Shown here: one piece after another, positions 229 to 13,322 of the stretch
Layout: every line of letters starts with the position of its first letter
Position numbering within the stretch: position 1 is the first letter of the stretch
Virus record (IMG/VR): IMGVR_UViG_3300042291_001568
Location: 32,001 to 96,000 of that record
From: a virus
DNA length: 64,000 nt
Direction: 5' to 3' (one strand)
Program-made: the position numbers and the translations under genes
The notes under the pieces: generated by a model
Database searches by the model: none
Told to the model about the DNA's origin: nothing
Seen by the model: only the letters and a program-made list of their open reading frames with translations

Positions 229-311
229 CCTTAGTTGTTCAAAAACTAAGGATGTTATAATTGATCTTATCAGGTAGGCACTCCGCCCACCTAACGACGA
301 AAGGACAAATA

Positions 312-476
312 ATGCTCGCAGGCAAACCATCCACCCGACTTCACGAAGTCATCGACTCATCGTTCCAGTACACGATGGTCGTCCACGCAGGAAGCAAGTC
401 AGCCTGCAACGCCTACTGGCTCGCTCAGGCAAGCCAGAAGCGCCAGGACCTCAAGGTCAGGGTCGCCAAGCGCTAA
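312..476 (+). CDS. small hypothetical protein (54 aa)
   Basis: ATG after promoter 246 and SD AAAGGA; C-terminal part of tracked ORF 261..476. Confidence 0.75.
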   Translation: MLAGKPSTRLHEVIDSSFQYTMVVHAGSKSACNAYWLAQASQKRQDLKVRVAKR

Positions 477-592
477 GGCGCTGGCGGCTTCGGCCTTGGC
501 CAAGTTTACAATTCCTAGTTCCAATGCCTCCTAAGTCTAGGCGGAACTAGGGATTGTATAATAGTCTTATACCTACAACGAAAGGACAAGAC

Positions 593-715
593 ATGCCAAC
601 AACTTGGAACTTTGACCTCCCATACGAGGCGCGCGACGAACACGAGGACGACGATTGGTGCGAAGGAGACGACGACTCCGAGCCGCGTCCATATTGGAAT
701 GGCGTCCCACACTAG
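593..715 (+). CDS. small acidic hypothetical protein (40 aa)
   Basis: Manually translated MPTTWNFDLPYEARDEHEDDDWCEGDDDSEPRPYWNGVPH; follows promoter 547 and SD AAAGGA. Confidence 0.7.
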   Translation: MPTTWNFDLPYEARDEHEDDDWCEGDDDSEPRPYWNGVPH

Positions 716-777
716 GGCCGCCAGGGCTTAGAACTAGAGAAGATATAATAGTCTTATCAACGACGAAGGGACACGAC

Positions 778-906
778 ATGGAAACAGCACACATCACAGA
801 CCAGACATGCGCCTGCGGATTCTCGTACCAGGATTGGATGGATTACGACGTCACTTGCGAAGCGCCAGAGAATGGCGATCTCCACTTATGGGAGCAGACC
901 AACTAA
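778..906 (+). CDS. small hypothetical protein, CxC/His, possible metal binding
   Basis: METAHITDQTCACGFSY...; follows promoter 734 and SD AAGGGA. Confidence 0.7.
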   Translation: METAHITDQTCACGFSYQDWMDYDVTCEAPENGDLHLWEQTN

Positions 907-955
907 AAACTCGGGATGTTATAATAATCTCATACCTACAACGAAGGGACACACG

Positions 956-1066
956 ATGATCAGGGCAATCAAACTCGGAATCAAAATATCACGCCAGCAG
1001 GGAATCCGCAAAGGGATCCAAGTTGGCCGCCACTTCTACCACTGGGCTCCAAAGGCCCGGTGGTAA
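956..1066 (+). CDS. small basic hypothetical protein (36 aa)
   Basis: Follows promoter 910 and SD AAGGGA. Confidence 0.65.
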   Translation: MIRAIKLGIKISRQQGIRKGIQVGRHFYHWAPKARW

Positions 1067-1113
1067 TCTAAGGATGTTATAATAATCTTATCAACGACGA
1101 AGGGACAAATCAA

Positions 1114-1365
1114 ATGAACACCAAATGGTGCTTACTCAAGACAAGTGACTCCGGCCCAATGGGACGCGGTCAGAGCAACAAAAAGAAAGTGTACGAGGTC
1201 ACCGTCACTGGAATGACTCTCGTATGCGAGTGGGGAATGGCAGAGAAGGCGCAACGACAAAGTTCAGTCGTGACCTACAGAAGCCACCAACACGCCCTTG
1301 CGGCCGCCTATACCAAGGTGCGGTCAAAGCAAGATCGGGGTTACCAGGTCGCGTACGCGGTCTAG
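1114..1365 (+). CDS. WGR-domain protein (paralogue 1)
   Basis: YEVTV...CEWG...AAAYTKVRSKQDRGY matches the WGR domain pattern; about 70% identical to 11714..11965 by manual alignment. Confidence 0.8.
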   Translation: MNTKWCLLKTSDSGPMGRGQSNKKKVYEVTVTGMTLVCEWGMAEKAQRQSSVVTYRSHQHALAAAYTKVRSKQDRGYQVAYAV

Positions 1366-1481
1366 GTAATCACTCCGGCGGGAAGGCTGCGATACCTCGA
1401 GCGGGTTCTTGGTTCAAAGCCTTCCATTCTGGAAACTAAGGATTGTATAATAGTCTCATACCTACAAATCAAGGAGAGATT

Positions 1482-1667
1482 ATGGTAAAGGTAAAATGGG
1501 GTAAAGGTGAAGTGGAAGTTAATTGTTCGGAAGAAGAATTAGCGGAAGTGTTATCGTGGGATAATGATATAATGTTGGGATGCTGGTTAGGTCTGGTAAA
1601 TGATAAAGGTCACGCGGCGGGTGTGGAATGGGCCAAAGAATATGACAAGATTCTGCGGGAGGGCTGA
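1482..1667 (+). CDS. small hypothetical protein (61 aa), very C-poor coding strand
   Basis: Follows promoter 1436 and SD AAGGAG. Confidence 0.7.
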   Translation: MVKVKWGKGEVEVNCSEEELAEVLSWDNDIMLGCWLGLVNDKGHAAGVEWAKEYDKILREG

Positions 1668-1723
1668 TCGTTGAATCTAAGGATTGTATAATAATCTTAT
1701 CAGCAAATGACAAAAGGACAACC

Positions 1724-1972
1724 ATGGAAACAGTGACAATTTGTGAATCAATTACCTGGGGCGGAACCAAAGAAGACGAGACGCTTCAAGATGTATTGGC
1801 CGACATTCAGAAAGCCGTACCTTCAGTGAAGATCACGCTTCTTGAAGCCCGCCCGTCGCACACCGGTGGATGGCCGATCTTTGAGTTGACCTTCAGCCGA
1901 GAGGATCTCTCATCACTTGCGGGCCTTTGGGAACTTGAGGTTGAGGATATCCTCGAGCGGGCTACGGCCTAA
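1724..1972 (+). CDS. hypothetical protein (82 aa)
   Basis: ORF track; follows promoter 1677 and SD AAAGGA. Confidence 0.75.
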   Translation: METVTICESITWGGTKEDETLQDVLADIQKAVPSVKITLLEARPSHTGGWPIFELTFSREDLSSLAGLWELEVEDILERATA

Positions 1973-2008
1973 GAGGTTTAACAATTCTAAGGATTGTATA
2001 ATGATTAC

Positions 2009-2161
2009 ATGACAACATACACCGTAACAATTCCACCATCCGCCCCACAAACAGTGTCCGCACCCGATCCGTATTCCGCTTACGAATCCGTATACAATTC
2101 CGCAATCCATTCCGTCAACCCAAAAAACTTTGACATCAACGATTACGTTACGACACCGTAA
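2009..2161 (+). CDS. leaderless small protein MTTYTVTIPP... (50 aa, paralogue 1)
   Basis: ATG 6 nt after TATAAT (1997-2002); paralogous to 10990..11142 (shared DPYxAYE and NPKxFDIxxYV). Confidence 0.75.
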   Translation: MTTYTVTIPPSAPQTVSAPDPYSAYESVYNSAIHSVNPKNFDINDYVTTP

Positions 2162-2239
2162 TCTGCGATCACGCTTCCACAGGGGCGAAAACTGTGGATT
2201 GTATAATGGTCTCATACCCACAACGACGAAAGAGGAAAA

Positions 2240-2473
2240 ATGAACACGAAAGAAACCCTGCTCGCAGCAATCGACCGTATCAAGGACAGCATCGACTTCT
2301 CTGATACATTCAGCGCGGTCTACGAGTCCACCTACCTGATTGGGAACGAACTCGCCCAAGACGAATTCACAATCCGCTTGGACAAAATTACCGAAGTCCT
2401 CAGCAACGACGACGACATCCTGGCATTCGCACTCGCCCTCAACGGAATCCGCGAGGAGGTTGCGGCCTTATAA
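2240..2473 (+). CDS. hypothetical protein (77 aa)
   Basis: ORF track; follows promoter 2192 and SD AGAGGA. Confidence 0.75.
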   Translation: MNTKETLLAAIDRIKDSIDFSDTFSAVYESTYLIGNELAQDEFTIRLDKITEVLSNDDDILAFALALNGIREEVAAL

Positions 2474-2510
2474 GCCTCGAGCGGAAACTCAGGATTGTAT
2501 AATAGTCTAC

Positions 2511-2672
2511 ATGAGGACAACAACAAAACAAAAAAAGCGAACAATCGCAAAATGGGACGAAGTCGATCGCCAAGGCTTCGCGGATGGCGGCCGCTTGCGG
2601 GCGCAAACGATCCCGAACAAAAAGCGAGTTGCGGCTCGCAAAGCCTGCCGGGACAAATCCCGGTGGGCGTAA
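2511..2672 (+). CDS. leaderless small basic protein (53 aa)
   Basis: ATG 7 nt after TATAAT (2498-2503); MRTTTKQKKRTIAKWDEVDRQGFADG... Confidence 0.7.
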   Translation: MRTTTKQKKRTIAKWDEVDRQGFADGGRLRAQTIPNKKRVAARKACRDKSRWA

Positions 2673-2736
2673 TGGCGCTCAAGATCTATGGATGATATAA
2701 TAATCTTATCAACAACGACGAAGGACAGATAACAAA

Positions 2737-2964
2737 ATGGAAGAAGCAACTGCGGCGCCCGGCCCAGCCATGGGCAAGGCAATCATAAAAGTCAACAACA
2801 CTGCCACAAAGCGCACGCGCAATCGCGTGAAAGAAGGTGGACCAGTCTTTGAGTTCTTTGACAATGCACACGCCAGACCTGGCGAACTATTGTTGCGGTC
2901 GCCAAAGACACAGTGGCTTGGGTGGCTACCAATAGATGAGATCGATTGGAAGCTTGATATTTGA
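2737..2964 (+). CDS. hypothetical protein (75 aa)
   Basis: ORF track; follows promoter 2686 and SD AAGGA. Confidence 0.7.
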   Translation: MEEATAAPGPAMGKAIIKVNNTATKRTRNRVKEGGPVFEFFDNAHARPGELLLRSPKTQWLGWLPIDEIDWKLDI

Positions 2965-3024
2965 ACTAAGGATTGTATAATAATCTTATCAACAACAACA
3001 ACTGAAAAAAGGACACACAACAAA

Positions 3025-3345
3025 ATGAAGACAGCAATGGTAATTGACACACAGGGACACGTGTCCACATTAGACATCTCAGTGCGCTCACTTGAGCAAA
3101 TGCAAGCTGCGGTCGGCGGATACGTCCAAGCGGTAGACATAGCCGACGACGTAACCTTGTGGTGCAACGAAGAAGGCAAAATGATGGGTCTCGAGCATAA
3201 TCCATTTGCTCAGCTCCTGTGGGATCGCACTTTCGGTGCGGGTACTGACTACATCGTCGGAACAGTGGTCATCACTGGTGGCGCGGACGATGAAGGCGAG
3301 ACTGTGGGACTGACAGCCGAGCAGGTAGCGTCGCTCGGGCTATAA
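3025..3345 (+). CDS. DUF3846-like protein
   Basis: LEQMQAAVGGYVQ...WCNEEGK..GL..N...IVGTVVITG matches the DUF3846 family pattern. Confidence 0.75.
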   Translation: MKTAMVIDTQGHVSTLDISVRSLEQMQAAVGGYVQAVDIADDVTLWCNEEGKMMGLEHNPFAQLLWDRTFGAGTDYIVGTVVITGGADDEGETVGLTAEQVASLGL

Positions 3346-3394
3346 GTTCTAAAGAAGATATAATTGAACTATCAACGAATGACAAGGACAACTC

Positions 3395-3586
3395 ATGACT
3401 GAGTACGAAGTTCACGTAGTCTTTCGTGTCACTGAAGAAGACAGCGGCATTGAGGAGCAAGTAGCCGAACGAGCATGGTCTTTCATCGAGCAGACTCTCG
3501 AGCCGACATCAATTGATGTGCTCAGTGTCAACGAGATTCCAGAAGCGCCTTCAGCAGAGATCATCGCATTCCCACGCGCTGACTAG
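3395..3586 (+). CDS. small acidic hypothetical protein
   Basis: ORF track; follows promoter 3349; its stop TAG overlaps the next motif. Confidence 0.7.
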   Translation: MTEYEVHVVFRVTEEDSGIEEQVAERAWSFIEQTLEPTSIDVLSVNEIPEAPSAEIIAFPRAD

Positions 3587-3632
3587 GGATTGTATAATTG
3601 AACTATCAACAGCAACGACAAAAGGACAGAAA

Positions 3633-3890
3633 ATGAAAGTATCGCCAAAAGACCTAGACAATTTGATCTTTGCTCTCGCGCCGCTAGACACTAAGGCGTT
3701 GCGTGACGCGCATCTCACCAGCTACGCTAAAGGAGAGTTGCGGTGCAAAGATGCCAACGTGCGCTATCGCTGGGATCTATACTGGACAGCAGTCTATCGT
3801 GGATTCTCGTTCAGCAAAGATACGTACAACGATGCGCACATTGACACAGCACTTCGTCATGCGGTCCCTTTACTAATCGATGTTATCTAA
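3633..3890 (+). CDS. hypothetical protein (85 aa)
   Basis: ATG after promoter 3583 and SD AAAGGA. Confidence 0.75.
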   Translation: MKVSPKDLDNLIFALAPLDTKALRDAHLTSYAKGELRCKDANVRYRWDLYWTAVYRGFSFSKDTYNDAHIDTALRHAVPLLIDVI

Positions 3891-3952
3891 TTAGGTAACA
3901 GCGCGGTAAGGTTCTACGGATTGTATAATAACTACATAGCAACGAAGGGACA

Positions 3953-4162
3953 ATGATGACAACCACATTTTACTCAAAAATAGAAACTCGGCGGTGCTCG
4001 CATTGCGGGTATAAAGGCGAAGTTGAAGTGCCCAACGCGGGCTTATTCAAACGCAGCTCAGGCGCGCTAATCCAAGAGGCTTTCCCAGACCTCAGCAAAG
4101 AACTCCGGGAGCAGCTAATGACTGGCACTCACCCCGAGTGCTGGGCAGAGATGTTTGGATAG
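3953..4162 (+). CDS. small putative Zn-binding protein
   Basis: CSHCG and HPEC motifs; follows promoter 3914. Confidence 0.75.
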   Translation: MMTTTFYSKIETRRCSHCGYKGEVEVPNAGLFKRSSGALIQEAFPDLSKELREQLMTGTHPECWAEMFG

Positions 4163-4208
4163 CTGCGGATTGTATAATTGTCTTATCAGCCAAAACAAAA
4201 GGACAACA

Positions 4209-4379
4209 ATGAGAACAGTAAATGACATCATGGAAGAGATCGAAGTTGGGATCATGGACGCCCAGTCCGACTACCCACACCTTAGCCTTGAAGACCTCAC
4301 AGGAGACGTGGTCCGCAGCATCGTTGTGGATTGCCACCCAGCTGTAGCCAGCGAAGTGCTACGGCGGTACGGTCTCTAG
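4209..4379 (+). CDS. small hypothetical protein (56 aa)
   Basis: Follows promoter 4163 and SD AAAGGA. Confidence 0.7.
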   Translation: MRTVNDIMEEIEVGIMDAQSDYPHLSLEDLTGDVVRSIVVDCHPAVASEVLRRYGL

Positions 4380-4397
4380 GGATTGTATAATAATCTT

Positions 4398-4637
4398 ATG
4401 GAAACAACAAAGACAAAAGACATCAAACAAGTAGACCTCATCGTCCATACCTCATGCGGTATAGCGTTCGAAGTCACTGACGTACTGACTGGAGAGTCCC
4501 TCACGGAAGGACGAATCAATTGGTGCACAGACGAAGACATTGAAGAAGATGAAGAGATTGAGTCACGCGGTTGGAACCACTTTCGCAAAAAGATTGCCAA
4601 GCAAGGTTGGACAATCAGAGAAGAAGTCTGGTCGTAG
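4398..4637 (+). CDS. leaderless hypothetical protein (79 aa)
   Basis: ATG 6 nt after TATAAT (4386-4391). Confidence 0.75.
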   Translation: METTKTKDIKQVDLIVHTSCGIAFEVTDVLTGESLTEGRINWCTDEDIEEDEEIESRGWNHFRKKIAKQGWTIREEVWS

Positions 4638-4691
4638 CTCTAACTAAGGATTGTATAATGGTCTTATCAACACAACGACAAAAGGAAACAC

Positions 4692-4871
4692 ATGCTAAAA
4701 AGTAGACACATCAGAAACACACGAGCGGCCGAGCGTAGACTTTACGCAATCGTCGCAAAAGCAAATGAGCTAAAAGCAGAGTCAGAAGAAGTCCGTGAGT
4801 ACCTGCGGGAAAACCATGAGTCAATTGAAGCAACATTGAAAGCGTTTGACGTAGCGGGTATTCGCTACTAA
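4692..4871 (+). CDS. small helical hypothetical protein (59 aa)
   Basis: Manually translated MLKSRHIRNTRAAERRLYAIV...; follows promoter 4644; its stop abuts the thyX ATG. Confidence 0.7.
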   Translation: MLKSRHIRNTRAAERRLYAIVAKANELKAESEEVREYLRENHESIEATLKAFDVAGIRY

Positions 4872-5567
4872 ATGAAAGAGCTAATCAACGTTGGCGGAGG
4901 ATTCGTTCGCTTGGACGCAGCGATGGCAGACGACATGTCTGTCGTCAATGCGGCCCGAGTGTCGTTTGCAAAGCAAAAGCAAGAGAACGAATGGATAGCA
5001 ATGTCAGAGGTTGACAAAGGTCTTGTCAACTTTCTCATGCGGGAGCGTCATGGAACTCCGTTTGAGCACAACGCTTTTCGCTTCCATGTCAAGTGCCCGG
5101 TCTTTGTTGCTCGTGAGTGGTTTCGTCACCGTATTGGATCATTCAATGAGTTTAGCGCGCGGTACTCAGAAGTTCCAAATGAGTTCTTCGTGCCGGCTGA
5201 AAGTGATGTTAGGACGCAAGTCGGCAAGCCAGGCGCATATCGCTTTGAGCCTGTAGATGCTGAATTGTCTCGTGAGACTGTAGAACTCATTCAAAAAAAC
5301 AATGAGCAAGCGTACGAAGCGTACCAGCACATGATAGTTCGTGGCGTAGCAAAAGAACTTGCTCGAGCGGTTCTACCTGTCTCAATGTATACACAATTCT
5401 ATTGGACAGTAAATGCGCGCTCGCTCATGAACTTTTTGTCGCTGAGACAGCACGAGTCCGCGCAACGCGATATTCGTGAGTACGCTAATGCGGTGTGCGA
5501 ACTTGCGTCGCCTGTGATGCCGGTTACGTTTGCGGCGTGGGAACAAAACGCTCGTATCGCGCCGTAA
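4872..5567 (+). CDS. thyX: FAD-dependent thymidylate synthase
   Basis: H.TPFEH, AREWFRHRIGSFNEFSARY (ThyX motif RHRx7S), KELARAVLP, NARSLMNFLSLR, AQRDIR. Confidence 0.96.
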   Translation: MKELINVGGGFVRLDAAMADDMSVVNAARVSFAKQKQENEWIAMSEVDKGLVNFLMRERHGTPFEHNAFRFHVKCPVFVAREWFRHRIGSFNEFSARYSEVPNEFFVPAESDVRTQVGKPGAYRFEPVDAELSRETVELIQKNNEQAYEAYQHMIVRGVAKELARAVLPVSMYTQFYWTVNARSLMNFLSLRQHESAQRDIREYANAVCELASPVMPVTFAAWEQNARIAP

Positions 5568-5590
5568 ACTCAGGATTGTATAATGATACT

Positions 5591-5764
5591 ATGAACAACG
5601 CGGACCTAGACAAAGCAATTGACTTCGCGGAGGGATACCAGAATACGTATCCTTTCTGCAAAAAGATGGCAATTCACTTCAATCGACTTGGGTACCTTAC
5701 AAGCAGCCAGGTTCAGACCCTACTTTCAATCAAAAAGGAACATGGGCTAAAAGCTCGGTTCTAG
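5591..5764 (+). CDS. leaderless hypothetical protein (57 aa)
   Basis: ATG 6 nt after TATAAT (5579-5584). Confidence 0.75.
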   Translation: MNNADLDKAIDFAEGYQNTYPFCKKMAIHFNRLGYLTSSQVQTLLSIKKEHGLKARF

Positions 5765-5812
5765 CTTCTTGGGATGATAAAGTAGCTAATAACAACATGG
5801 AAGGAAACCAAA

Positions 5813-5917
5813 ATGGAATTTGTAGTATCATTTGATAACACAGTGGCATCAGTGGCATGGGCTTTGACAGTCTTCTTGCTTGGTGGAATGGCAATTAGCA
5901 AGCGTCGGACAAAATAG
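5813..5917 (+). CDS. small membrane protein (34 aa)
   Basis: MEFVVSFDNTVASVAWALTVFLLGGMAISKRRTK; SD AAGGA; follows variant promoter 5768. Confidence 0.6.
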   Translation: MEFVVSFDNTVASVAWALTVFLLGGMAISKRRTK

Positions 5918-5918
5918 C

Positions 5919-6098
5919 ATGGAAGCATTAGAGATAAGCACGGCTGCAAAGCTCGCGCTCGCGACGCTTCCAGCAGTGGCCTTCGTATTAGTTATGCGCG
6001 GCTATGGCACTCTCGCAGAGTGCTCTTTGCAAAAGAAAGCAGAACTCGCTGGCAGTAAGCATCGCCACCCGACTAATGCAAATTACAAGGCTGGCTAA
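5919..6098 (+). CDS. small putative membrane protein (59 aa)
   Basis: Hydrophobic segment LALATLPAVAFVLVM; starts 1 nt after the previous stop. Confidence 0.55.
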   Translation: MEALEISTAAKLALATLPAVAFVLVMRGYGTLAECSLQKKAELAGSKHRHPTNANYKAG

Positions 6099-6176
6099 TT
6101 TTCTAGGGATGTTATTATAATCCTGTCAACCTTTACGGTAAGACAACAACAACGACAAACGACAAAGGACTAAGCT

Positions 6177-6692
6177 ATGGGAATGGATGTGTACGGAAGA
6201 AATGCTACGTCAGAAAAAGGCGAGTACTTTCGCAATAATGTTTGGTGGTGGAGACCACTGTGGAACTACTGTCTTGAAGTAGCTCCGGCACTATGCGGTG
6301 AAGTCGATGGCGACACTAATGGTGGCGATGGATTAGACGAAGATGGCGCACAAGAACTCAGCGCTATTCTAAAAGAGTGCCTTGCAACTGGGCACACCTT
6401 TGAATACGAAGACAAATACAACAAACACATCGCGGAGTTGCCACAAACAGACTGCGCGTATTGCGGTACGACTGGGATCCGCACTGACAAAGTAGGCGAA
6501 GAATTTGGAATGCCTGCTAAGCAACTGGAAGAAGCGCTTGCCGTCTTACTTGGCCGCACGCACGGCACTTGCAATGGTTGCGGTGGCGAAGGCAAGGTTG
6601 CTTCGTGGGAAGCTTCGTATCCATTCTCAGCAGAGAACGTTGAAGAGTTCGCAGAGTTTCTTGCGCAAAGCGGTGGCTTCTCAATTTGCTGA
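6177..6692 (+). CDS. hypothetical protein with DnaJ-type CxxCxGxG zinc-finger repeats
   Basis: CAYCGTTG and CNGCGGEG; follows promoter 6103 and SD AAAGGA. Confidence 0.8.
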   Translation: MGMDVYGRNATSEKGEYFRNNVWWWRPLWNYCLEVAPALCGEVDGDTNGGDGLDEDGAQELSAILKECLATGHTFEYEDKYNKHIAELPQTDCAYCGTTGIRTDKVGEEFGMPAKQLEEALAVLLGRTHGTCNGCGGEGKVASWEASYPFSAENVEEFAEFLAQSGGFSIC

Positions 6693-6799
6693 TCTAATGT
6701 CCCGACCTCGATAAGTTCTTACTGTGATAAGACTCGAGGTTGGACTTACAATCTAAGGATTGTATAATAGTACTATCAACAACAACAGGAGGACACGCT

Positions 6800-7009
6800 G
6801 TGGCACATTACGTAGACACGGTTCTTGAAGGACTCAAGGAGATTGGTCATACGGCCAAGAAACTGGGCATCGAGAAAGTAGCAGAAGCTGCAGGGATCAA
6901 ACCGAGAATGGTAAAGAAGTTCACGGTTGACCCGATGACATGCAACAATGCGGACATCAGAAAGATCACAGCCGCCGTCAAAGAACTAACAGAGGACAAA
7001 CCAGAATGA
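6800..7009 (+). CDS. small putative helix-turn-helix protein
   Basis: GTG start after SD GGAGGA; LGIEKVAEAAGIKPRMVKKF is HTH-like. Confidence 0.65.
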   Translation: MAHYVDTVLEGLKEIGHTAKKLGIEKVAEAAGIKPRMVKKFTVDPMTCNNADIRKITAAVKELTEDKPE

Positions 7010-7344
7010 CATCAGCAGAAGAAACAGTCATACGCCACATATCGCTCGGGGTATACGACAGTACGTTAGCGGACATAGAGAAAGCTCTAACAGAGCGACT
7101 CCGAGTCACGCGGCAGTCAAGAACTATCAAAGACTATGGCGTAGGCGACAAGGTCGTATTCAATAGCCTATGCGGTACACAGTACTTACAAGGAGCCACA
7201 GGGGTAGTTGTAGGCTTGAAGCAGAAAAAGTTGCTGGTCAAATTGGACAATCCAGTAGGACGATTTGTCCGCTATTCGTCAGATGGGAAAGTAGAGTCGT
7301 CGAGTATCAGTGTACCGACAAGCATCGTTGACATAGTAAGGTAG
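7006..7344 (+). CDS. hypothetical protein, possible SH3/KOW-like C-terminus
   Basis: ATGA overlap with the previous stop; YGVGDKVVFN...GVVVGLKQKKLLVKLD. Confidence 0.7.
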   Translation: MTSAEETVIRHISLGVYDSTLADIEKALTERLRVTRQSRTIKDYGVGDKVVFNSLCGTQYLQGATGVVVGLKQKKLLVKLDNPVGRFVRYSSDGKVESSSISVPTSIVDIVR

Positions 7345-7350
7345 TACTCA

Positions 7351-7938
7351 ATGACAACCATAGTGTGCGTACAAGGACCTAAGTGGGCAGTAGTCGGCTA
7401 CGACTCTCAAGTGACAGAAGAAGATGGTCGTCGCTACACGATGGCACGCGGTTCAACAAAGGTCGCAAGGAATGGCGAGTTTCTTCTCGGTGCTGCGGGT
7501 GATGTGCGAGCAATCAACATCCTTACGCACGCATTCTTTCCACCACAAGTCGGTGACTTAGTTGGAGTGCGGCTAGACAAATACATGACTAGCAAATTCA
7601 TTCCTTCATTGCGGACGTGCTTTGAAGCTCAAGGCTACGCAGCGTCAGGTAAAGACGAGCAAGCACAGTACGGATCAGATGTTCTTGCGGTAGTCAATGG
7701 AACTGTCTACGTCATTGGTGACGACTACTCGTGGGTACGAGATGCTGCGGGTGTGTACGCGCTGGGAACTGGCGGCGACTACGCATTAGGCAGTCTGCAT
7801 TCGTTCGGATTGCCAAAGCTCATGACAAAAGTGTCTGCGGCTCAAGATGCGGTGCGGCAATCTTTACAAATTGCTGCAAAACTAGATCCCGGGTCAGGAC
7901 CACCTTTCCATATTGTAAGCCAACTTGCTCCAAAATAG
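7351..7938 (+). CDS. HslV/proteasome beta-subunit-like Ntn-hydrolase (Thr protease)
   Basis: N-terminal MTTIV, D-S-Q-V-T, a Lys at the catalytic Lys33-like position (GSTKV), LLGAAGD, ALGTGGDYALG. Confidence 0.8.
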   Translation: MTTIVCVQGPKWAVVGYDSQVTEEDGRRYTMARGSTKVARNGEFLLGAAGDVRAINILTHAFFPPQVGDLVGVRLDKYMTSKFIPSLRTCFEAQGYAASGKDEQAQYGSDVLAVVNGTVYVIGDDYSWVRDAAGVYALGTGGDYALGSLHSFGLPKLMTKVSAAQDAVRQSLQIAAKLDPGSGPPFHIVSQLAPK

Positions 7939-7961
7939 ACGCAAACGAAAGAAGAATAGAC

Positions 7962-8207
7962 ATGAACGACGAAAATGACCTGATGAGTTGGAGAGACAAA
8001 GCTGCATGCATTGGTCGCCAAGAACTATTCTTTGAAGATCACAAAAGTACTACGGTGCGAAAGGCAAAAAGCGTATGCGCTACCTGTGCGGTGATTGACA
8101 ACTGTAGAGAGTACGCACTCGTCCATACTGAGTTTGGAGTCTGGGGCGGAATGACTGCAAACGAAAGGCGACGTATGTTGCGGGTACGCCGTAGGCAGCA
8201 AAAGTAG
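7962..8207 (+). CDS. whiB: WhiB-family Fe-S transcription factor
   Basis: W...AAC...LFF...AKSVCATC.V...C..YAL...FGVWGGMT..ER: four Cys plus GVWGG. Confidence 0.93.
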   Translation: MNDENDLMSWRDKAACIGRQELFFEDHKSTTVRKAKSVCATCAVIDNCREYALVHTEFGVWGGMTANERRRMLRVRRRQQK

Positions 8208-8279
8208 AATGAAATACTCAATAGCTCCGTTGACTTGTAGTATCGTGTATGACTTAGGACAATATGTACGGAGGAAGCA

Positions 8280-8435
8280 ATGTCAGAAAACTCAGAGAAG
8301 CGTAAGCCACAAAAGTGGAAGTGCCCTAAATGCGACAACACTATGATCACTTTTGTCGGCCTTAGTGAGAACCCTACTTGCCGCAATCCTTCTGCGCACT
8401 CAACTACGACCGTAGAAATGGAAGAAACTAAATGA
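8280..8435 (+). CDS. small zinc-finger protein (51 aa)
   Basis: WKCPKC...PTCRNPSAH; SD GGAGG. Confidence 0.65.
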   Translation: MSENSEKRKPQKWKCPKCDNTMITFVGLSENPTCRNPSAHSTTTVEMEETK

Positions 8436-8566
8436 TCTTTCTCGTACTTGCTTTCTTGTTTACGTTTGCGGCAATGTCAGTTCGCCTCGCTCGTAAAGAG
8501 AAGGTGCACGGTACGGCTCTTCTTGGGGTAGTCAGTCCTCAAAAAGATATTGACAAAAAATTGTAG
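8432..8566 (+). CDS. small membrane protein (44 aa)
   Basis: ATGA overlap; MIFLVLAFLFTFAAMSVRL is hydrophobic. Confidence 0.5.
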   Translation: MIFLVLAFLFTFAAMSVRLARKEKVHGTALLGVVSPQKDIDKKL

Positions 8567-8743
8567 TACTTATGTACTTTTCAGTATCTACGAAGTAGTA
8601 TAAGACCAATGACACACATGGATGCAGCAGCCTATGCGGTTCTCGATGAAGCAAAAGCGCTTATTGAAGAAGCAAGAAAGCAGCTTTCACTGATGCCAGA
8701 AGAAATACAAACAAAAACTACACTACGAAGGAGACAAACAAAC

Positions 8744-8926
8744 ATGTCAGAACTTACAGCACAGCGTGCGGGCGAACTCTACGCTCAAGGGCAATCAGTT
8801 ATTGAAGTAGCTCGAGCACATGGACTCTCGTACAGCCAGACTCGTAAGCTCATCGGAGCAAGCGGTACACCAATTCGCGATGCATCTGGTCGTCTCAAAG
8901 GACGTACCCGTAAGGCAACAGCGTAA
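8744..8926 (+). CDS. helix-turn-helix DNA-binding protein (in-frame upstream start at 8609 possible)
   Basis: ELYAQGQSVIEVARAHGLSYSQTRKLIGASGTPIR; SD AAGGAG before 8744. Confidence 0.75.
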   Translation: MSELTAQRAGELYAQGQSVIEVARAHGLSYSQTRKLIGASGTPIRDASGRLKGRTRKATA

Positions 8927-8928
8927 CT

Positions 8929-9099
8929 ATGCCAACTTGGTTCTCGCAATTGCGGAACTTAGTATGGACATCTGTTCTTGCGGTGATCATGGGTTTAGCA
9001 TCTGTGGTCACCGCAATTGCGGGTGGAAGTATTGAGGTAGTCGTTAGTCTCGCCTTGTTTGGAGCAATACTAAGCACCCTGTCCTCTAAGGTGCGCTAA
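8929..9099 (+). CDS. small two-TM membrane protein (56 aa)
   Basis: MPTWFSQLRNLVWTSVLAVIMGLASVVTAIAGGSIEVVVSLALFGAILSTLSSKVR. Confidence 0.6.
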   Translation: MPTWFSQLRNLVWTSVLAVIMGLASVVTAIAGGSIEVVVSLALFGAILSTLSSKVR

Positions 9100-9143
9100 C
9101 ACTCGGGAATGTATAGTAGTAGTTATACAACAGAGGAGTAAAC

Positions 9144-9317
9144 ATGGAACCAGAAGTATTCAAAGTAACAGTGACCAATAGCGATGGAGACGACATCGTC
9201 GCCTACGTCACCCCCGTACAGAAGCAAGCCTATGTTCGCTCGATGACAGAAGAGTACGGTCCTGCCGTAGTTGAGCCGATGATGATTGCGGACCTTCCTG
9301 AAGGCATAGAACTCTGA
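9144..9317 (+). CDS. small hypothetical protein (57 aa)
   Basis: MEPEVFKVTVTNSDGDDIVAYV...; SD GAGGAG; follows promoter 9102. Confidence 0.7.
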   Translation: MEPEVFKVTVTNSDGDDIVAYVTPVQKQAYVRSMTEEYGPAVVEPMMIADLPEGIEL

Positions 9318-9475
9318 TGGTCTGGCTAGAGCACTTGCGTATTGCGGGTGGGCCAACAACAATTGAAGACGACAAGCGCGAACTGCGCAAAGTCGCAAAG
9401 ATCGATGCCGACTGTAATGAACGCTTTATGCGGGACTTACTTGGTGACGACGAGTACGAAGACTGGGACAACTAG
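9317..9475 (+). CDS. small hypothetical protein (52 aa)
   Basis: TGATG coupling to the previous gene. Confidence 0.55.
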   Translation: MVWLEHLRIAGGPTTIEDDKRELRKVAKIDADCNERFMRDLLGDDEYEDWDN

Positions 9476-9524
9476 TCTTCGCATTCAATACTAAATGACA
9501 AAACGACAAATAAGGAGATAACAT

Positions 9525-9890
9525 ATGTGGGTATTTACCCAAGACGGATTCGTAAGCGTGGTGGACAACCATCAACGCAAGGGATTCCTTACAGCACGAT
9601 CACGTGATCGTCAATCGCTAATCGCTCTTTCAGAGATTGCAAGCTGCGAAATTGAGTTCACACCTATGCGGGACTATCAGTACCGTACTTTCGTAACTCG
9701 AGATCAGTATTCAGAATGGCTTGCATTGCAATCAGAAATGCTGAACTACGGCAACTTCAAAGATCAAGTGCATAAGACACTTGGCGACACGTACTACCAT
9801 GCATGCGGTGAAGTATGGCACGCAATGAACATGGTTCAAGATGACGAAGCCGCGCAGTGGACTAGAGATCGCTACGCTGCGAAAGCGTAA
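9525..9890 (+). CDS. conserved phage hypothetical protein
   Basis: MWVFTQDGFVSVV...DYQYR...LNYGNFK; SD AAGGAG. Confidence 0.8.
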   Translation: MWVFTQDGFVSVVDNHQRKGFLTARSRDRQSLIALSEIASCEIEFTPMRDYQYRTFVTRDQYSEWLALQSEMLNYGNFKDQVHKTLGDTYYHACGEVWHAMNMVQDDEAAQWTRDRYAAKA

Positions 9891-10014
9891 CGCAATGGAC
9901 TCGCACGATCAAGCAACACTAATACTTTGCGTTGCTTTGGCCTGCTGCGTTGCGGTGCTTCTATGCCTGTGACTCAGAGTTTCACATCTATTCTGAAGTC
10001 GGAATGGATGTGAA

Positions 10015-10248
10015 ATGACTGCCAATCGACTCAAGTATGAGTGCGCCGCATGCGGTGAGATGTTTGCGAAGACTTATGAGCACATGAGCCATTACATGGA
10101 GAAGCACGACGAAGGCTACATACCTCGTGGGCAGCGTCGCTTGCGTAAGGTTGCGTGCCGGAGCTGCGTCAAAGAAATGCCAGTCCCAAACTTAGAAGCT
10201 GGCGAGTGGTGGCGTTGTGAGTGCGGCTTTGAGCTTCCACGATCTTGA
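10015..10248 (+). CDS. C2H2 plus C4 zinc-finger protein
   Basis: CAAC...H..H followed by CRSC...CEC. Confidence 0.7.
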   Translation: MTANRLKYECAACGEMFAKTYEHMSHYMEKHDEGYIPRGQRRLRKVACRSCVKEMPVPNLEAGEWWRCECGFELPRS

Positions 10249-10329
10249 GGTAGCGGTTAGCTCGGGGCTAAAACTCGGGATGATAAAGTGTATCTATCAG
10301 CAAATGCTGGTAACGACAAAAGGATGATC

Positions 10330-10539
10330 ATGGAAACTATTACAATGAAGGGAGCCGTAGTTGCGGTTCTCACGCTCGGAAGCACTGTGCAAATCTGGGT
10401 GGCTTCGCCAACCGGTGACTCATCAGACTCACACATCTTTGAGATGCCAACAACGTCTGACTCACACGCACACGTCATTGCAAATATGTGGCGCAAAGCC
10501 TGGAATCTTCCAGCAGCTGACGCTCCTCTCGAGTTCTAA
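10330..10539 (+). CDS. hypothetical protein (69 aa)
   Basis: Follows promoter 10274 and SD AAAGGA. Confidence 0.7.
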   Translation: METITMKGAVVAVLTLGSTVQIWVASPTGDSSDSHIFEMPTTSDSHAHVIANMWRKAWNLPAADAPLEF

Positions 10540-10551
10540 TTTATAGTGGCC

Positions 10552-10709
10552 GAGTAACGCCGCAATACCTCATCGCGCTGAGCGGTGTCAAAGTTACTCA
10601 CTCAGCTAATATCTGCTCGCCCAGCTCGAGTTCTTCGTCGTACTTGGGCTGGCTGCTGAGCTAAAGTCAGGGGCTCGCAAGGACCTCCACCTTGCGGGCC
10701 TCACGACTT
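10552..10709 (+). ncRNA. candidate structured non-coding RNA (three hairpins)
   Basis: GAGTAAC 10552/GTTACTC 10593; CTCAGC 10601/GCTGAG 10655 enclosing CCAGCTCGAGT 10621/ACTTGGGCTGG 10642; GGCTCGCAAGG 10672/CCTTGCGGGCC 10690. The stem mismatches are G-U on the + strand. Confidence 0.45.
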
Positions 10710-10776
10710 CTCACCTTGTACGTCAAAAAACTCAGGATGGTACAATGTTCTTACCAACAAGGAAAGGACGAATGAC

Positions 10777-10947
10777 ATGCAGATTACAGAAGACAACTAC
10801 AACGACATCCAGTATGTGACAGCTCATGACGACTGCGGTACATGCCGCGGACACCTAGAGTTCGCACTCGCAAACTTCAAGCGCACACCATCGATTGAAT
10901 CGATGACTGGGGACAATGACTGCTTCGGTAAGGTCTACATCGCGTAG
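10777..10947 (+). CDS. small hypothetical protein with CxxC (56 aa)
   Basis: MQITEDNYNDIQYVTAHDDCGTCRGH...; follows promoter 10731 and SD AAAGGA. Confidence 0.65.
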   Translation: MQITEDNYNDIQYVTAHDDCGTCRGHLEFALANFKRTPSIESMTGDNDCFGKVYIA

Positions 10948-10989
10948 GCCTTATCGCGGTCATTATCTAAGGATTGTATAATTGGCTAC

Positions 10990-11142
10990 ATGACAACCTA
11001 CATAGTTACCATCACACCTAACAATCCACAAACCATAATCAGCGGCGATCCGTATACTGCGTACGAAATAGCGTACACTAACGATCCAGCCCCGATCAAT
11101 CCAAAAACTTTCGACATCGAAAATTACGTCAAACTCGCATAA
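10990..11142 (+). CDS. leaderless small protein MTTYIVTITP... (50 aa, paralogue 2)
   Basis: ATG 7 nt after TATAAT (10977-10982); same length as and homologous to 2009..2161. Confidence 0.75.
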   Translation: MTTYIVTITPNNPQTIISGDPYTAYEIAYTNDPAPINPKTFDIENYVKLA

Positions 11143-11268
11143 CACTCAAACCGCAAGGGCGACGGCGATTGCAACTCGCCGCCGCCATACGGCGATCAAA
11201 AACTGAGGATGATAAAGTGTACATATCAGCTAGGCACTCCGCCTGACTGAACGACGAAGGGACAAATA

Positions 11269-11598
11269 ATGGAAACACTACTCAACAAGCCAGTGATTGG
11301 CGAAGGAGCTACGGTCAGCTACTGCGCTGACTCGCACGCAATGACAATCATCGCGGTCAGCGATAACGGCAAGACAGTTACCGTTCAGCGGGATTCCGTC
11401 AAGCCAGCAGATCACGCAAACATCTACCGTGGCGCCAACTACAACAACATCTGGGTGACCACACCAGACCCAGCCGGAGCGACAATGGTCTTCACCCTCC
11501 GCCAGAATGGCAAGTACGTGGCGCAAGGTGAGCCAATGCGGTCAGGGACTAAGCTCCACATCGGCAGCCGCCACGAATACTACAGCTACGAGTTCTAA
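11269..11598 (+). CDS. hypothetical protein (109 aa)
   Basis: ORF track; follows promoter 11203 with a hairpin leader and SD AAGGGA. Confidence 0.8.
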   Translation: METLLNKPVIGEGATVSYCADSHAMTIIAVSDNGKTVTVQRDSVKPADHANIYRGANYNNIWVTTPDPAGATMVFTLRQNGKYVAQGEPMRSGTKLHIGSRHEYYSYEF

Positions 11599-11609
11599 GT
11601 AAGGACTCA

Positions 11610-11637
11610 GGGGCCAGGCTCGAGAGGGCCTGGCTCC
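11610..11637 (+). terminator. GC-rich hairpin, putative terminator
   Basis: GGGGCCAGGC/GCCTGGCTCC 10-bp stem immediately after the stop at 11598. Confidence 0.5.
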
Positions 11638-11713
11638 CCCTCCCGGGGGGAATCTAGGGATGATAAATTGATCTCATCAGCAAGGCGCTGGTAACGACGA
11701 AGGGACAAATACA

Positions 11714-11965
11714 ATGAATAAGAAATGGGCACTCCTCAAGGGATCAGATATCGGACCAATGGGCCGAGGACAATCCGGCAAAAAGAAGATCTACGAGGTC
11801 ACGGTGACAGACACCACACTCCACTGCTCGTGGGGAATGGCCGAGAAGACCAACCGCCAGTCAAGCACGCAGGTGTTCCGCACCAGCCAGCAAGCACTCG
11901 CAGCCGGGTACGCCAAGGTCAACAGCAAGATGGACCGCGGGTACGCAGTAGCCTACTCGGTCTGA
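11714..11965 (+). CDS. WGR-domain protein (paralogue 2)
   Basis: YEVTV...CSWG...AKVNSKMDRGY; about 70% identical to 1114..1365. Confidence 0.8.
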   Translation: MNKKWALLKGSDIGPMGRGQSGKKKIYEVTVTDTTLHCSWGMAEKTNRQSSTQVFRTSQQALAAGYAKVNSKMDRGYAVAYSV

Positions 11966-12215
11966 CCAGACCTCAACCCAAGGCCTCACCTCAGCAGCAA
12001 AGCTGGGGTGGGGCTCAGAGGCGCTCAGAAGCCCTGAGTGCCCTTGCGGTATCCACATCAGGTATTTAGGTAGCACGAGCACAGACCAAGTTCTAGGGCC
12101 TCTGGCAACACTCCAAAGCGAGGTGCCTTGCGGGCTAAGGTCCCAGGGCACAGTTCTAGGGATGATAAAGTACTACTATCAGCCAAACCGACTGGTAACG
12201 ACGAAAGAAGACAAA

Positions 12216-12377
12216 ATGACCACATACACAGTAATGATCGCCGATGGCGGTGGAAGCGAAGTTTACATCTCGGGCGTCACGCTCGAGCACGCCGAGACTC
12301 TTGTCGCGACGAACAAGCTTCAGAATGAAGTGAAGTACACAGGCAGCGTCCTGTACATCCGCGGACTCAAGAAATAA
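12216..12377 (+). CDS. small hypothetical protein (53 aa)
   Basis: Follows promoter 12156. Confidence 0.65.
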   Translation: MTTYTVMIADGGGSEVYISGVTLEHAETLVATNKLQNEVKYTGSVLYIRGLKK

Positions 12378-12395: not shown

Positions 12396-12956
12396 ATGAC
12401 AACATACGCACCACCATCAGAGAAGCAAGTGGCTTTCCTCAAGTCACTGCTCGGCACCCGTGAGGTTGACGAAGCGGTGAAGAGTGATTTGCTCGAGCAG
12501 TTAGAACTTGACGTCCTTGAGAAGCGCATCGCAAGTGAAGCGATTGACTCGCTACTCAAGTTGCCGAAGTTGCCGAAGTCAACCACGCCGTCGCCGTTCC
12601 AAGAACTACTGCGGAGCATTCCAAAGTCGCGGTACGCAATTCCGGTTGATGAACTCGAGTTGACAGATGCGACAGACTCCTTCACAGGCGACTTAGTATT
12701 TGTTGAACTCAAGGAGTACATGCAGACAATGTACATGCGCCAGTTACACGGTGCCCCAGGTGGCTTCAGTCGCTCGAAGCTCACAATAGAATCCGTGAAG
12801 GCGATCATCGCAATTGTTGCGACTGACCCATACAAGTACACTCGCATCTTCGGTGAGCACTACACATGTTGCGGGTCATGTGGAGCAGAGTTGACTGACA
12901 CCAAGTCACGTGAACTCATGCTTGGACCGGAGTGCCGCAAGAAGTTTGGGAGGTAG
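12396..12956 (+). CDS. DUF6011-like zinc-binding domain protein
   Basis: C-terminal CGSCGAELTD.KSRELMLGPEC; SD AAAGGA. Confidence 0.8.
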   Translation: MTTYAPPSEKQVAFLKSLLGTREVDEAVKSDLLEQLELDVLEKRIASEAIDSLLKLPKLPKSTTPSPFQELLRSIPKSRYAIPVDELELTDATDSFTGDLVFVELKEYMQTMYMRQLHGAPGGFSRSKLTIESVKAIIAIVATDPYKYTRIFGEHYTCCGSCGAELTDTKSRELMLGPECRKKFGR

Positions 12957-13281: not shown

Positions 13282-13322
13282 CGCGGTCAACATACATGGC
13301 CTGACTCGTGTAGAATAAGTTC

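Follow-up and report, generated by a model that had tools for sequence, protein, structure and literature searches.

Repeated promoter cassettes without a -35 element form a clade-wide array in uncultured lake phages

Introduction

How are dozens of small phage genes, almost every one with a promoter of its own, transcribed from promoters that carry no -35 element, and which RNA polymerase reads them? The question is raised by a 64,000-nt stretch of viral DNA, bases 32001-96000 of the IMG/VR record IMGVR_UViG_3300042291_001568, which is referred to here as the window. The record is a linear contig of 116,822 bp with an estimated completeness of 87% and belongs to an uncultured actinophage from a lake. 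At the left end of the window, a predicted promoter of roughly 28 bp recurs along one strand in front of small open reading frames (ORFs), and each repeat appears to form part of a compact cassette. Judged by sequence, this array of putative promoter cassettes is real, clade-wide, and highly regular. Positions given below are those of the window unless they are marked as genome positions.

Extent and density of the array

The window was scanned with the 16-mer pattern proposed in the first-pass annotation, allowing up to two mismatches and using shuffled sequence for comparison. This search returned 29 plus-strand matches between 246 and 12171. Elsewhere in the window, only three matches occur, all of them on the minus strand, whereas shuffled sequence yielded 2.99 ± 1.66 matches with a maximum of 8. 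The array of 29 units covering 12 kb described in the annotation therefore stands, since about three copies would be expected by chance. Although the repeated units are real, their extent had been understated. A scan of the whole contig locates 60 copies between genome positions 17,523 and 44,171, every one on the plus strand. The array spans 26.6 kb and extends 14.5 kb past the left edge of the window, which contains its right-hand 45%.

Within these 27 kb, 60 promoters serve about 70 genes. The proposed layout, in which the units are promoters that each precede one small gene and are packed end to end, is upheld. A strict rule of one promoter and one gene describes most of the 29 window copies, but those at 4644, 6753, and 9102, and probably those at 5768 and 12156, serve at least two genes. 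The distribution of TATAAT follows the same boundary, with 54 copies inside the array against five on the plus strand and seven on the minus strand in the other 89 kb of the contig. This scarcity elsewhere is consistent with selective removal of strong -10 elements at stray sites, given a promoter system that relies mainly on the -10.

Architecture of the promoter

Alignment of the 60 copies defines seven invariant positions, namely C-22, T-21, G-17, A-16, T-12, A-11, and T-7. G-18 is present in 58 copies, and the -10 hexamer is exactly TATAAT in 52. Positions -20, -19, -14, and -13 vary beside invariant neighbors. In the logo built from these copies, A/T-rich bases are confined to three positions (-25 to -23), and no -35 signal is present, with at most 0.25 bit at each position from -47 to -26. 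A standard -35/-10 scanner likewise placed a -35-like hexamer at three of the 29 window copies, which is the level of chance and of shuffled sequence. Downstream of the hexamer, six bases lean toward RRTCTY, and the seventh (+1) is A in 50 of the 60 copies.

The conserved block had been described as neither a standard -35 nor a TGn element. The first part of this description is correct, but the second holds only in part. A canonical T-15 G-14 occurs in 18 of the 60 copies, and a TTG that places the G one base closer to the hexamer occurs in 28. G occupies -13 in 35 copies, and either -14 or -13 carries G in 56. The element thus appears to be in part an extended -10.

Two other explanations of the block were considered and rejected. 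It is unlikely that the TAR of the motif is kept mainly as a stop codon, as only 11 of 60 upstream ORFs terminate on a TAG or TAA within the following motif and 12 copies carry C at -20. A sigma-54 or alternative-sigma reading of the GG was set aside in view of the perfect primary-sigma -10 and the spacing.

Leaders, leaderless starts, and junctions

Two kinds of unit follow the promoter. In 46 units, a leader of most often 24 nt carries a conserved AAAGGACA ribosome site. GGA is found in all 46 leaders, the next base is C in 39, and the one after that is A in 42; the commonest spacing to the ATG, counted from the A of AAAGGACA, is 10 nt. This conservation exceeds what ribosome pairing requires. 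Of the Shine-Dalgarno leader that had been assigned to the units, the core AARGGAC occurs in 33 of the leadered units and the full 13-nt form in only about 10. About nine units, or about one in six, are leaderless and have no ribosome site. Among those in the window, the ATG lies exactly at the predicted +1 in three and one base later in two (Table 1). Units whose +3 base is G open long ORFs precisely at +1.

Leaderless genes report the start site, because the transcript must begin at the start codon. This property was used on a sample of 314 non-redundant promoters from this genome and 24 related sequences (25 contigs in total). In 59 of these, the hexamer is followed by an ATG at a distance of 6 nt, and 47 of the 59 open ORFs of at least 40 aa; the distance is 7 nt in another 11, all of which open ORFs of that length. 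Every other distance between 0 and 15 nt accounts for zero to five cases. This distribution supports the predicted +1, which falls on base seven or eight downstream of the hexamer and agrees with a primary-sigma promoter, and it comes as close to start-site mapping as sequence data can.

The units are separated by little DNA. Junctions measure 30 nt or less in 18 of 28 cases in the window, and most therefore leave no room for a terminator. The reported overlap or contact between the CT of the motif and the preceding stop codon (at 3583, 4163, and 4376) is accurate: the stops at 3584-3586 and 4377-4379 lie inside the CTAG of the next motif, and the ORF that ends at 4162 abuts its neighbor. A consensus terminator scan detected terminator-like sites at chance level. 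About seven of 16 longer gaps fold far better than shuffled sequence (z below -3); those in the window are 10540-10730 (191 nt, z -4.6) and the hairpin-rich 11966-12155 (190 nt, z -5.0).

Six units have longer leaders that open in a hairpin at the extreme 5' end. In the window, these hairpins occupy 268-292, 10296-10311, 11225-11251, 11676-11692, and 12178-12196 and are of the AUCAGC...GCUGGU type, while the leaders of relatives keep the pairing with other bases (CAAGC/GCUUG or CAGGC/GCCUG). The structure suggests a conserved 5' stabilizer. Units of this type also carry a weaker, TAAAGT-type -10.

Distribution among relatives

Megablast of 12.5 kb against 50,697 phage records gave no match. 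By terminase protein, the nearest record is Actinomycetia phage DSL-LC01 (84% amino-acid identity), a metagenome-assembled genome from Dishui Lake whose paper is silent on promoters (PMC10611076). DSL-LC01 contains 34 copies of the same design; its block differs slightly, reading CTAAAG instead of the CTARGG of the present genome, and its pre-start sequence differs as well, whereas the leader is unchanged. One IMG/VR contig of 32 kb carries 68 copies in 26 kb. Among 80 terminase relatives taken with 10 kb of upstream DNA, those at least 79% identical carry such arrays, with lineage-specific versions of the block. A set of 206 promoters of relatives, selected without using positions -22 and -21, gave the consensus A-24, W-23, C-22 (176 of 206), T-21 (160), A-20, R-19, R-18, G-17 (174), and A-16 (142). 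A -35 signal is likewise absent from this set.

A different promoter type appears in three loci at 72-75% identity (L104, L111, and L115; IMG/VR contigs, 10 kb upstream of the terminase). They have the same kind of array and the same AAAGGA leader, and their promoters consist of TTGACA, a spacer of 17-18 nt, and TG-n-TATAAT or TATACT. In the terminase tree, all -35-less arrays fall into one clade (support 100/98), and the -35 arrays form a separate clade (100/100). The -35-less design was probably derived from an ordinary array of host-type promoters, although the tree is rooted only at its midpoint, and the -35 arrays constitute a natural control set for it. Cultured relatives, namely Gordonia phage GodonK and Microbacterium phage Cece, lack a repeat array of this kind. 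Their genes overlap in operon style, and TATAAT is essentially absent, with one minus-strand copy in Cece.

Movement of cassettes

The repeats had also been proposed as points at which genes are shuffled, and the comparison of cassettes is compatible with shuffling, the motif itself being a candidate crossover point. The array holds three WGR cassettes and two further pairs of paralogues. When the WGR cassettes are aligned, the homologous segment begins about 25 nt upstream of the promoter and ends at the stop codon, with no homology beyond it. At either edge of the array, the cassette homologues in DSL-LC01 keep a collinear order, whereas in the middle the order is scrambled, and some relatives carry homologues on the opposite strand. 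Nucleotide identity across the alignments to 82 related loci ranges from 65 to 82%, and most of these alignments are limited to one gene. Together with a slight resemblance between neighboring promoters, the duplicated and rearranged cassettes fit gain, loss, and movement at the level of the predicted cassette.

Which polymerase reads the promoters

The motif, its statistics, the start site, the lack of a -35, the clade distribution, and the paralogues are read from the sequence; we infer which polymerase is involved, that expression is early, and what the upstream block does. On balance, the evidence leans toward the host polymerase with its primary (SigA-type) sigma factor, which would read the -35-less promoters without phage help, each promoter driving a self-contained cassette. 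Recognition would depend on the near-perfect -10 hexamer together with G at either -14 or -13. The conserved block, which spans about -25 to -15 and has a clade consensus of roughly A-W-C-T-A-R-R-G-A-W, would act where a -35 contact is otherwise needed. It covers -22 to -18, the position at which a contact by the beta-prime zipper was shown to substitute for the -35 contact on promoters with a strong -10. Transcription would begin at the A 7 nt after the hexamer. A cassette composed of a promoter, a 24-nt AAAGGACA leader or none, and one small ORF with its stop would be self-sufficient, and transcripts would run on and add up along the array, with breaks only at the few hairpin-rich gaps. As each gene has its own signals, cassettes could be duplicated, lost, or moved without polar effects.

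The strongest argument for the host primary-sigma polymerase is the probable derivation of these promoters from an ordinary host-type array. Genome-wide start-site maps of mycobacteria and corynebacteria also contain -10-only promoters and many leaderless mRNAs. No Sigma70 r2, r3, or r4 domain and no T7-type polymerase was detected in the contig (87% complete), and the family of the phage D29 protein gp53, searched by its Pfam family, had no match there.

Several observations weigh against this reading. The likely promoters of the leaderless terminase gene and of the gene at 8609, both in the same genome, lack the upstream block, which would therefore be dispensable for basal recognition and may mark a regulated class. 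The sequence of the block is unlike the two published Z-elements. Moreover, the block is invariant within the genome and differs between close relatives at -19, -18, and -15, and a co-evolving phage protein would explain such shifts more easily than a conserved host enzyme. The incompleteness of the contig limits the sigma-gene negative, and sigma mimics can escape Pfam models.

A tentative alternative is accordingly a promoter class private to the phage, in which host sigma region 2 reads the -10 and an unrecognized factor, either phage-encoded or injected, reads -22 to -16. This factor could be an activator or a sigma mimic without region 4 that stands in for the -35 contact. The block would match such a reader in being constant in each genome and shifting between relatives (CTARGG here, CTAAAG in DSL-LC01, and CTACAA, CTGAGC, or CCAGAG elsewhere), while the non-array promoters lack it. 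The separate clade uses a -35, so the switch coincides with a changed mode of recognition. There are precedents. Phages are known to favor promoters without a -35 once they have disabled sigma region 4, as in the case of P23-45 gp39, which spares extended -10 promoters (PMC3950348), and D29 gp53 is a mycobacteriophage sigma mimic of regions 2 and 3 only that ordinary sigma models miss (preprint 10.64898/2026.10.05.756390). Between 23 and 28 of the 28 clade loci have kept WhiB, a helix-turn-helix (HTH) protein, and zinc-ribbon proteins. However, the first genes to be expressed cannot rely on a protein that is not yet made, unless it is injected. C-22, T-21, G-17, and A-16 are common to the whole clade, which fits a common conserved reader. 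Neither a gp53-like nor a sigma-like gene was found in the contig, and no candidate protein is linked to the motif. If this alternative were true, a whole clade of lake actinophages would be able to silence -35-dependent host transcription while about 60 of its own genes stay on.

It is unlikely that the repeat is instead a composite of a plain -10 promoter and an overlapping asymmetric site, at which a phage repressor would turn off the entire array at once. Comparable to the Cluster A mycobacteriophage stoperators, which are asymmetric, oriented with transcription, and bound by the phage repressor (PMC4351075), such an operator could mediate a switch from early to late expression or the immunity of a prophage. 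The present site shares the asymmetry and the single orientation, is intergenic, exists in dozens of copies, and varies between lineages. DSL-LC01 has a recombinase and is called apparently lysogenic in its paper (PMC10611076), and the conserved backbone of the array includes an HTH gene with its own, different promoter. Stoperators, however, are not paired with a -10, whereas every copy here is fused to one and thus falls outside that class. The loss of the -35 in exactly this clade argues for a positive role of the block, and no repressor was identified.

Homogenization by recombination, with the uniformity arising mainly from gene conversion or from mobile cassettes like the PeSL repeats of T4-type phages and the block kept without function, is highly improbable: adjacent promoters are slightly closer than random pairs (8.58 versus 9.47 differences, reached by 2 of 5000 permutations), and the paralogy and scrambled cassette order described above would agree with it, but the similarity of neighbors is weak and limited to lag 1, conservation is position-specific, with the four variable positions standing beside invariant ones, and the same positions are conserved across the 25 contigs.

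Unit inventory, cargo, and conserved backbone

The units of the window are collected in Table 1. The DUF6011 gene at 12396-12956, next after the last array unit, has no promoter of its own.

Table 1. Array units in the window
Unit	Coordinates	Strand	Promoter and remarks
54-aa ORF 312-476	246..476	+	Promoter 246-261; 44-nt leader with 5' hairpin
40-aa ORF 593-715	547..715	+	Promoter 547; 24-nt leader
42-aa ORF 778-906	734..906	+	Promoter 734, 2 mismatches
36-aa ORF 956-1066	910..1066	+	Promoter 910
83-aa WGR-domain ORF 1114-1365	1068..1365	+	Promoter 1068; one of three paralogues
61-aa ORF 1482-1667	1436..1667	+	Promoter 1436
82-aa ORF 1724-1972	1677..1972	+	Promoter 1677
Leaderless, 50 aa	1987..2161	+	Promoter 1987; ATG at predicted +1 (2009); paralogue of unit 10967
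77-aa ORF 2240-2473	2192..2473	+	Promoter 2192
Leaderless, 53 aa	2488..2672	+	Promoter 2488; ATG 2511, 7 nt after hexamer
75-aa ORF 2737-2964	2686..2964	+	Promoter 2686
106-aa DUF3846 ORF 3025-3345	2966..3345	+	Promoter 2966
63-aa ORF 3395-3586	3349..3586	+	Promoter 3349; stop is TAG of next motif
85-aa ORF 3633-3890	3583..3890	+	Promoter 3583
69-aa ORF 3953-4162	3914..4162	+	Promoter 3914; ORF abuts next motif
56-aa ORF 4209-4379	4163..4379	+	Promoter 4163; stop inside next motif
Leaderless, 79 aa	4376..4637	+	Promoter 4376; ATG at predicted +1 (4398)
Two genes: 59-aa ORF 4692-4871, then ThyX 4872-5567	4644..5567	+	Promoter 4644
Leaderless, 57 aa	5569..5764	+	Promoter 5569; ATG at predicted +1 (5591)
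34-aa ORF 5813-5917	5768..5917	+	Weaker -10, TAAAGT behind TG
171-aa ORF 6177-6692	6103..6692	+	Promoter 6103; -10 TATTAT; 52-nt leader
Operon: 6800-7009, 7006-7344, HslV-like 7351-7938, WhiB 7962-8207	6753..8207	+	Promoter 6753
Operon: ORFs 9144-9317, 9317-9475, 9525-9890, 10015-10248	9102..10248	+	Degenerate promoter 9102; -10 TATAGT
69-aa ORF 10330-10539	10274..10539	+	TG and TAAAGT -10; 5'-hairpin leader; 191-nt folding gap follows
56-aa ORF 10777-10947	10731..10947	+	Promoter 10731; -10 TACAAT
Leaderless, 50 aa	10967..11142	+	Promoter 10967; ATG 10990, one base after predicted +1
109-aa ORF 11269-11598	11203..11598	+	TAAAGT -10; 5'-hairpin leader
83-aa WGR paralogue 11714-11965	11654..11965	+	TAAATT -10; 5'-hairpin leader; 190-nt hairpin-rich gap follows
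53-aa ORF 12216-12377, last array unit	12156..12377	+	Promoter 12156

Pfam and PHROGs scans of about 40 cargo proteins put names to WGR, DUF3846, ThyX, an HslV-like protease, WhiB, a weak HTH, LysM, and DUF6011. The cargo otherwise consists mostly of unnamed small proteins, whose probable role, by analogy with other phages, is an early takeover or disarming of the host. We infer early expression from the promoter type and from analogy with T4, SPO1, and Kayvirus. A ThyX search in 185,579 genomes, aimed at the host, returned only distant, non-actinobacterial matches.

Within the array, the promoter-poor stretch 6753-10250 is a conserved backbone that recurs in 23-28 of the 28 loci belonging to the -35-less clade. 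It encodes the HslV-like protease, WhiB, a zinc-ribbon protein, the HTH protein, a 121-aa protein, and a zinc-finger protein, and also a small hydrophobic protein that may reside in a membrane. The zinc proteins are encoded at 8280-8435 and 10015-10248. Of all these proteins, only the 121-aa protein was detected upstream of the terminase in the three -35-type loci, in L104. The three paralogous WGR proteins (83-84 aa, 66-70% identical) are encoded by the two window units listed in Table 1 and at genome 19150-19404 (L002). Each WGR cassette is preceded by a short GC-rich CCCC...GGGG hairpin. WGR homologues occur in 16 related loci, with two copies in DSL-LC01.

Likely promoters of another type precede two genes. 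TAGAAT lies 6 nt before the terminase ATG (13323), and TAGTAT precedes the ATG at 8609 by 7 nt. The two genes would have leaderless transcripts, and their promoter regions (13290-13325 and 8560-8611) are devoid of the array block. The HTH protein encoded at 8609-8926 could have its operator in the repeated GTAGTA-type words around 8540-8600.

Other sequence features accompany the array. At genome 29536-29740 and 31784-31933, just left of the window, canonical promoter copies have no credible ORF downstream. A second, bipartite motif, CCGGCCTG followed after about 18 nt by ATGACGGG, is found at genome 17132-31590 (the L002-L009 region, left of the window) and has no copy in the window. It forms tandem clusters of two or three in array gaps that are otherwise free of genes, and some clusters end directly at a cassette promoter. 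This motif may represent a group of binding sites or an additional type of promoter. CTCGAG is enriched in the array, with 25 of 46 sites within 24% of the genome, and four CTCGAGCGG are among these sites, at 1396, 1952, 2476, and 5362.

Comparison with known promoter systems

Arrays of this kind are already known from other phages. What is new is the spacer block in place of a -35 combined with frequent leaderless starts, together with a ratio of about one promoter per gene and a matched, separate clade that uses ordinary promoters. The SPO1 host-takeover module and the PeSL repeats, named as analogues in the first-pass annotation, remain apt as working models, although membership in the PeSL class fails, as most units have no -35 and no stem-loop. 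The host-takeover module of SPO1 belongs with the early promoter sets of large Gram-positive phages.

PeSL (promoter-early stem-loop) repeats number about 50 strong promoters per genome in T4-type phages, where they precede ORFan genes in plastic regions (PMC2839356; PMC4122927). As in the present array, each PeSL repeat spans the upstream stop, the ribosome site, and the start codon, and the repeats are thought to mediate the shuffling of cassettes. By definition, however, PeSLs comprise a sigma-70 -35 as well as a -10, an AT-rich upstream tract, and an obligatory stem-loop terminator (PMC2839356). The array described here has no -35, most of its junctions could not accommodate a hairpin, and stable folding is limited to about seven gaps. 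The host phylum and virus family also differ, and the role as breakpoints has been shown for PeSLs. The units would work like PeSLs without being PeSLs.

Kayvirus and SPO1 use dozens of near-consensus promoters for the host polymerase to express small host-takeover genes at the start of infection, as the array probably does. The 58 early promoters of Kayvirus consist of TTGACW, a 17-nt spacer, and TRTGN-TATANT, and they serve 193 genes in 31 units (PMC7698491). Here, by contrast, 60 promoters suffice for about 70 genes, without a -35 and with leaderless mRNAs.

A counterpart by position is the Z-element, located at -22 to -18 of the T7 A1 promoter, which can replace the -35 contact when the -10 is strong (PMC3173786). 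That 2011 study predicted a class of -10/Z promoters and gave no consensus; the published Z-elements, AACCT and AACAT, come from two T7 promoters. The array promoters resemble this class in their strong -10, the missing -35, and the conserved element at -22 to -18. They differ in having CTARG at these positions, in a block that reaches -16, and in carrying AAWCT 3 bp further upstream. Hence, they fit the -10/Z class by position and context and are unlike it by sequence. The extended -10 promoters of P23-45 (PMC3950348) offer a related case, as they also combine a strong -10 with the lack of a -35, and TG at -15/-14 makes the -35 contact dispensable.

Actinophages provide additional points of reference, with short conserved motifs preceding many genes. 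The AAAGGACA leader resembles a start-associated sequence of the kind known from Clusters K and EF (PMC7302621), and the Cluster EF motif shares GAAAGGAC. As in those clusters, many genes of the present genome show a motif of unusual conservation where the ribosome binds. Cluster O has leaderless SigA-like promoters, and leaderless starts have already been predicted in actinophages (PMC4351075, PMC7302621). The motifs of Clusters A, K, EF, and O nevertheless occur 8-35 times in a genome, and they do not constitute entire promoters that recur with every gene.

Significance

Conserved early regulatory sequences have already been used to identify anti-defense genes carried by viruses of archaea (PMC11065993). 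In uncultured lake phages, the present motif similarly provides an easy marker of genes that are self-contained and probably early, with about 60 mostly unnamed small proteins per genome. The promoter, the leader, and the leaderless variants are also compact parts to try for gene expression in actinobacteria. More broadly, the clade supplies several hundred aligned natural promoters that are strong, lack a -35, and carry a conserved element at a spacer position where a Z-element contact was proposed in 2011 and never given a consensus. Together with the matched -35 clade, it provides a ready comparison for what replaces the -35 contact in actinobacterial transcription.

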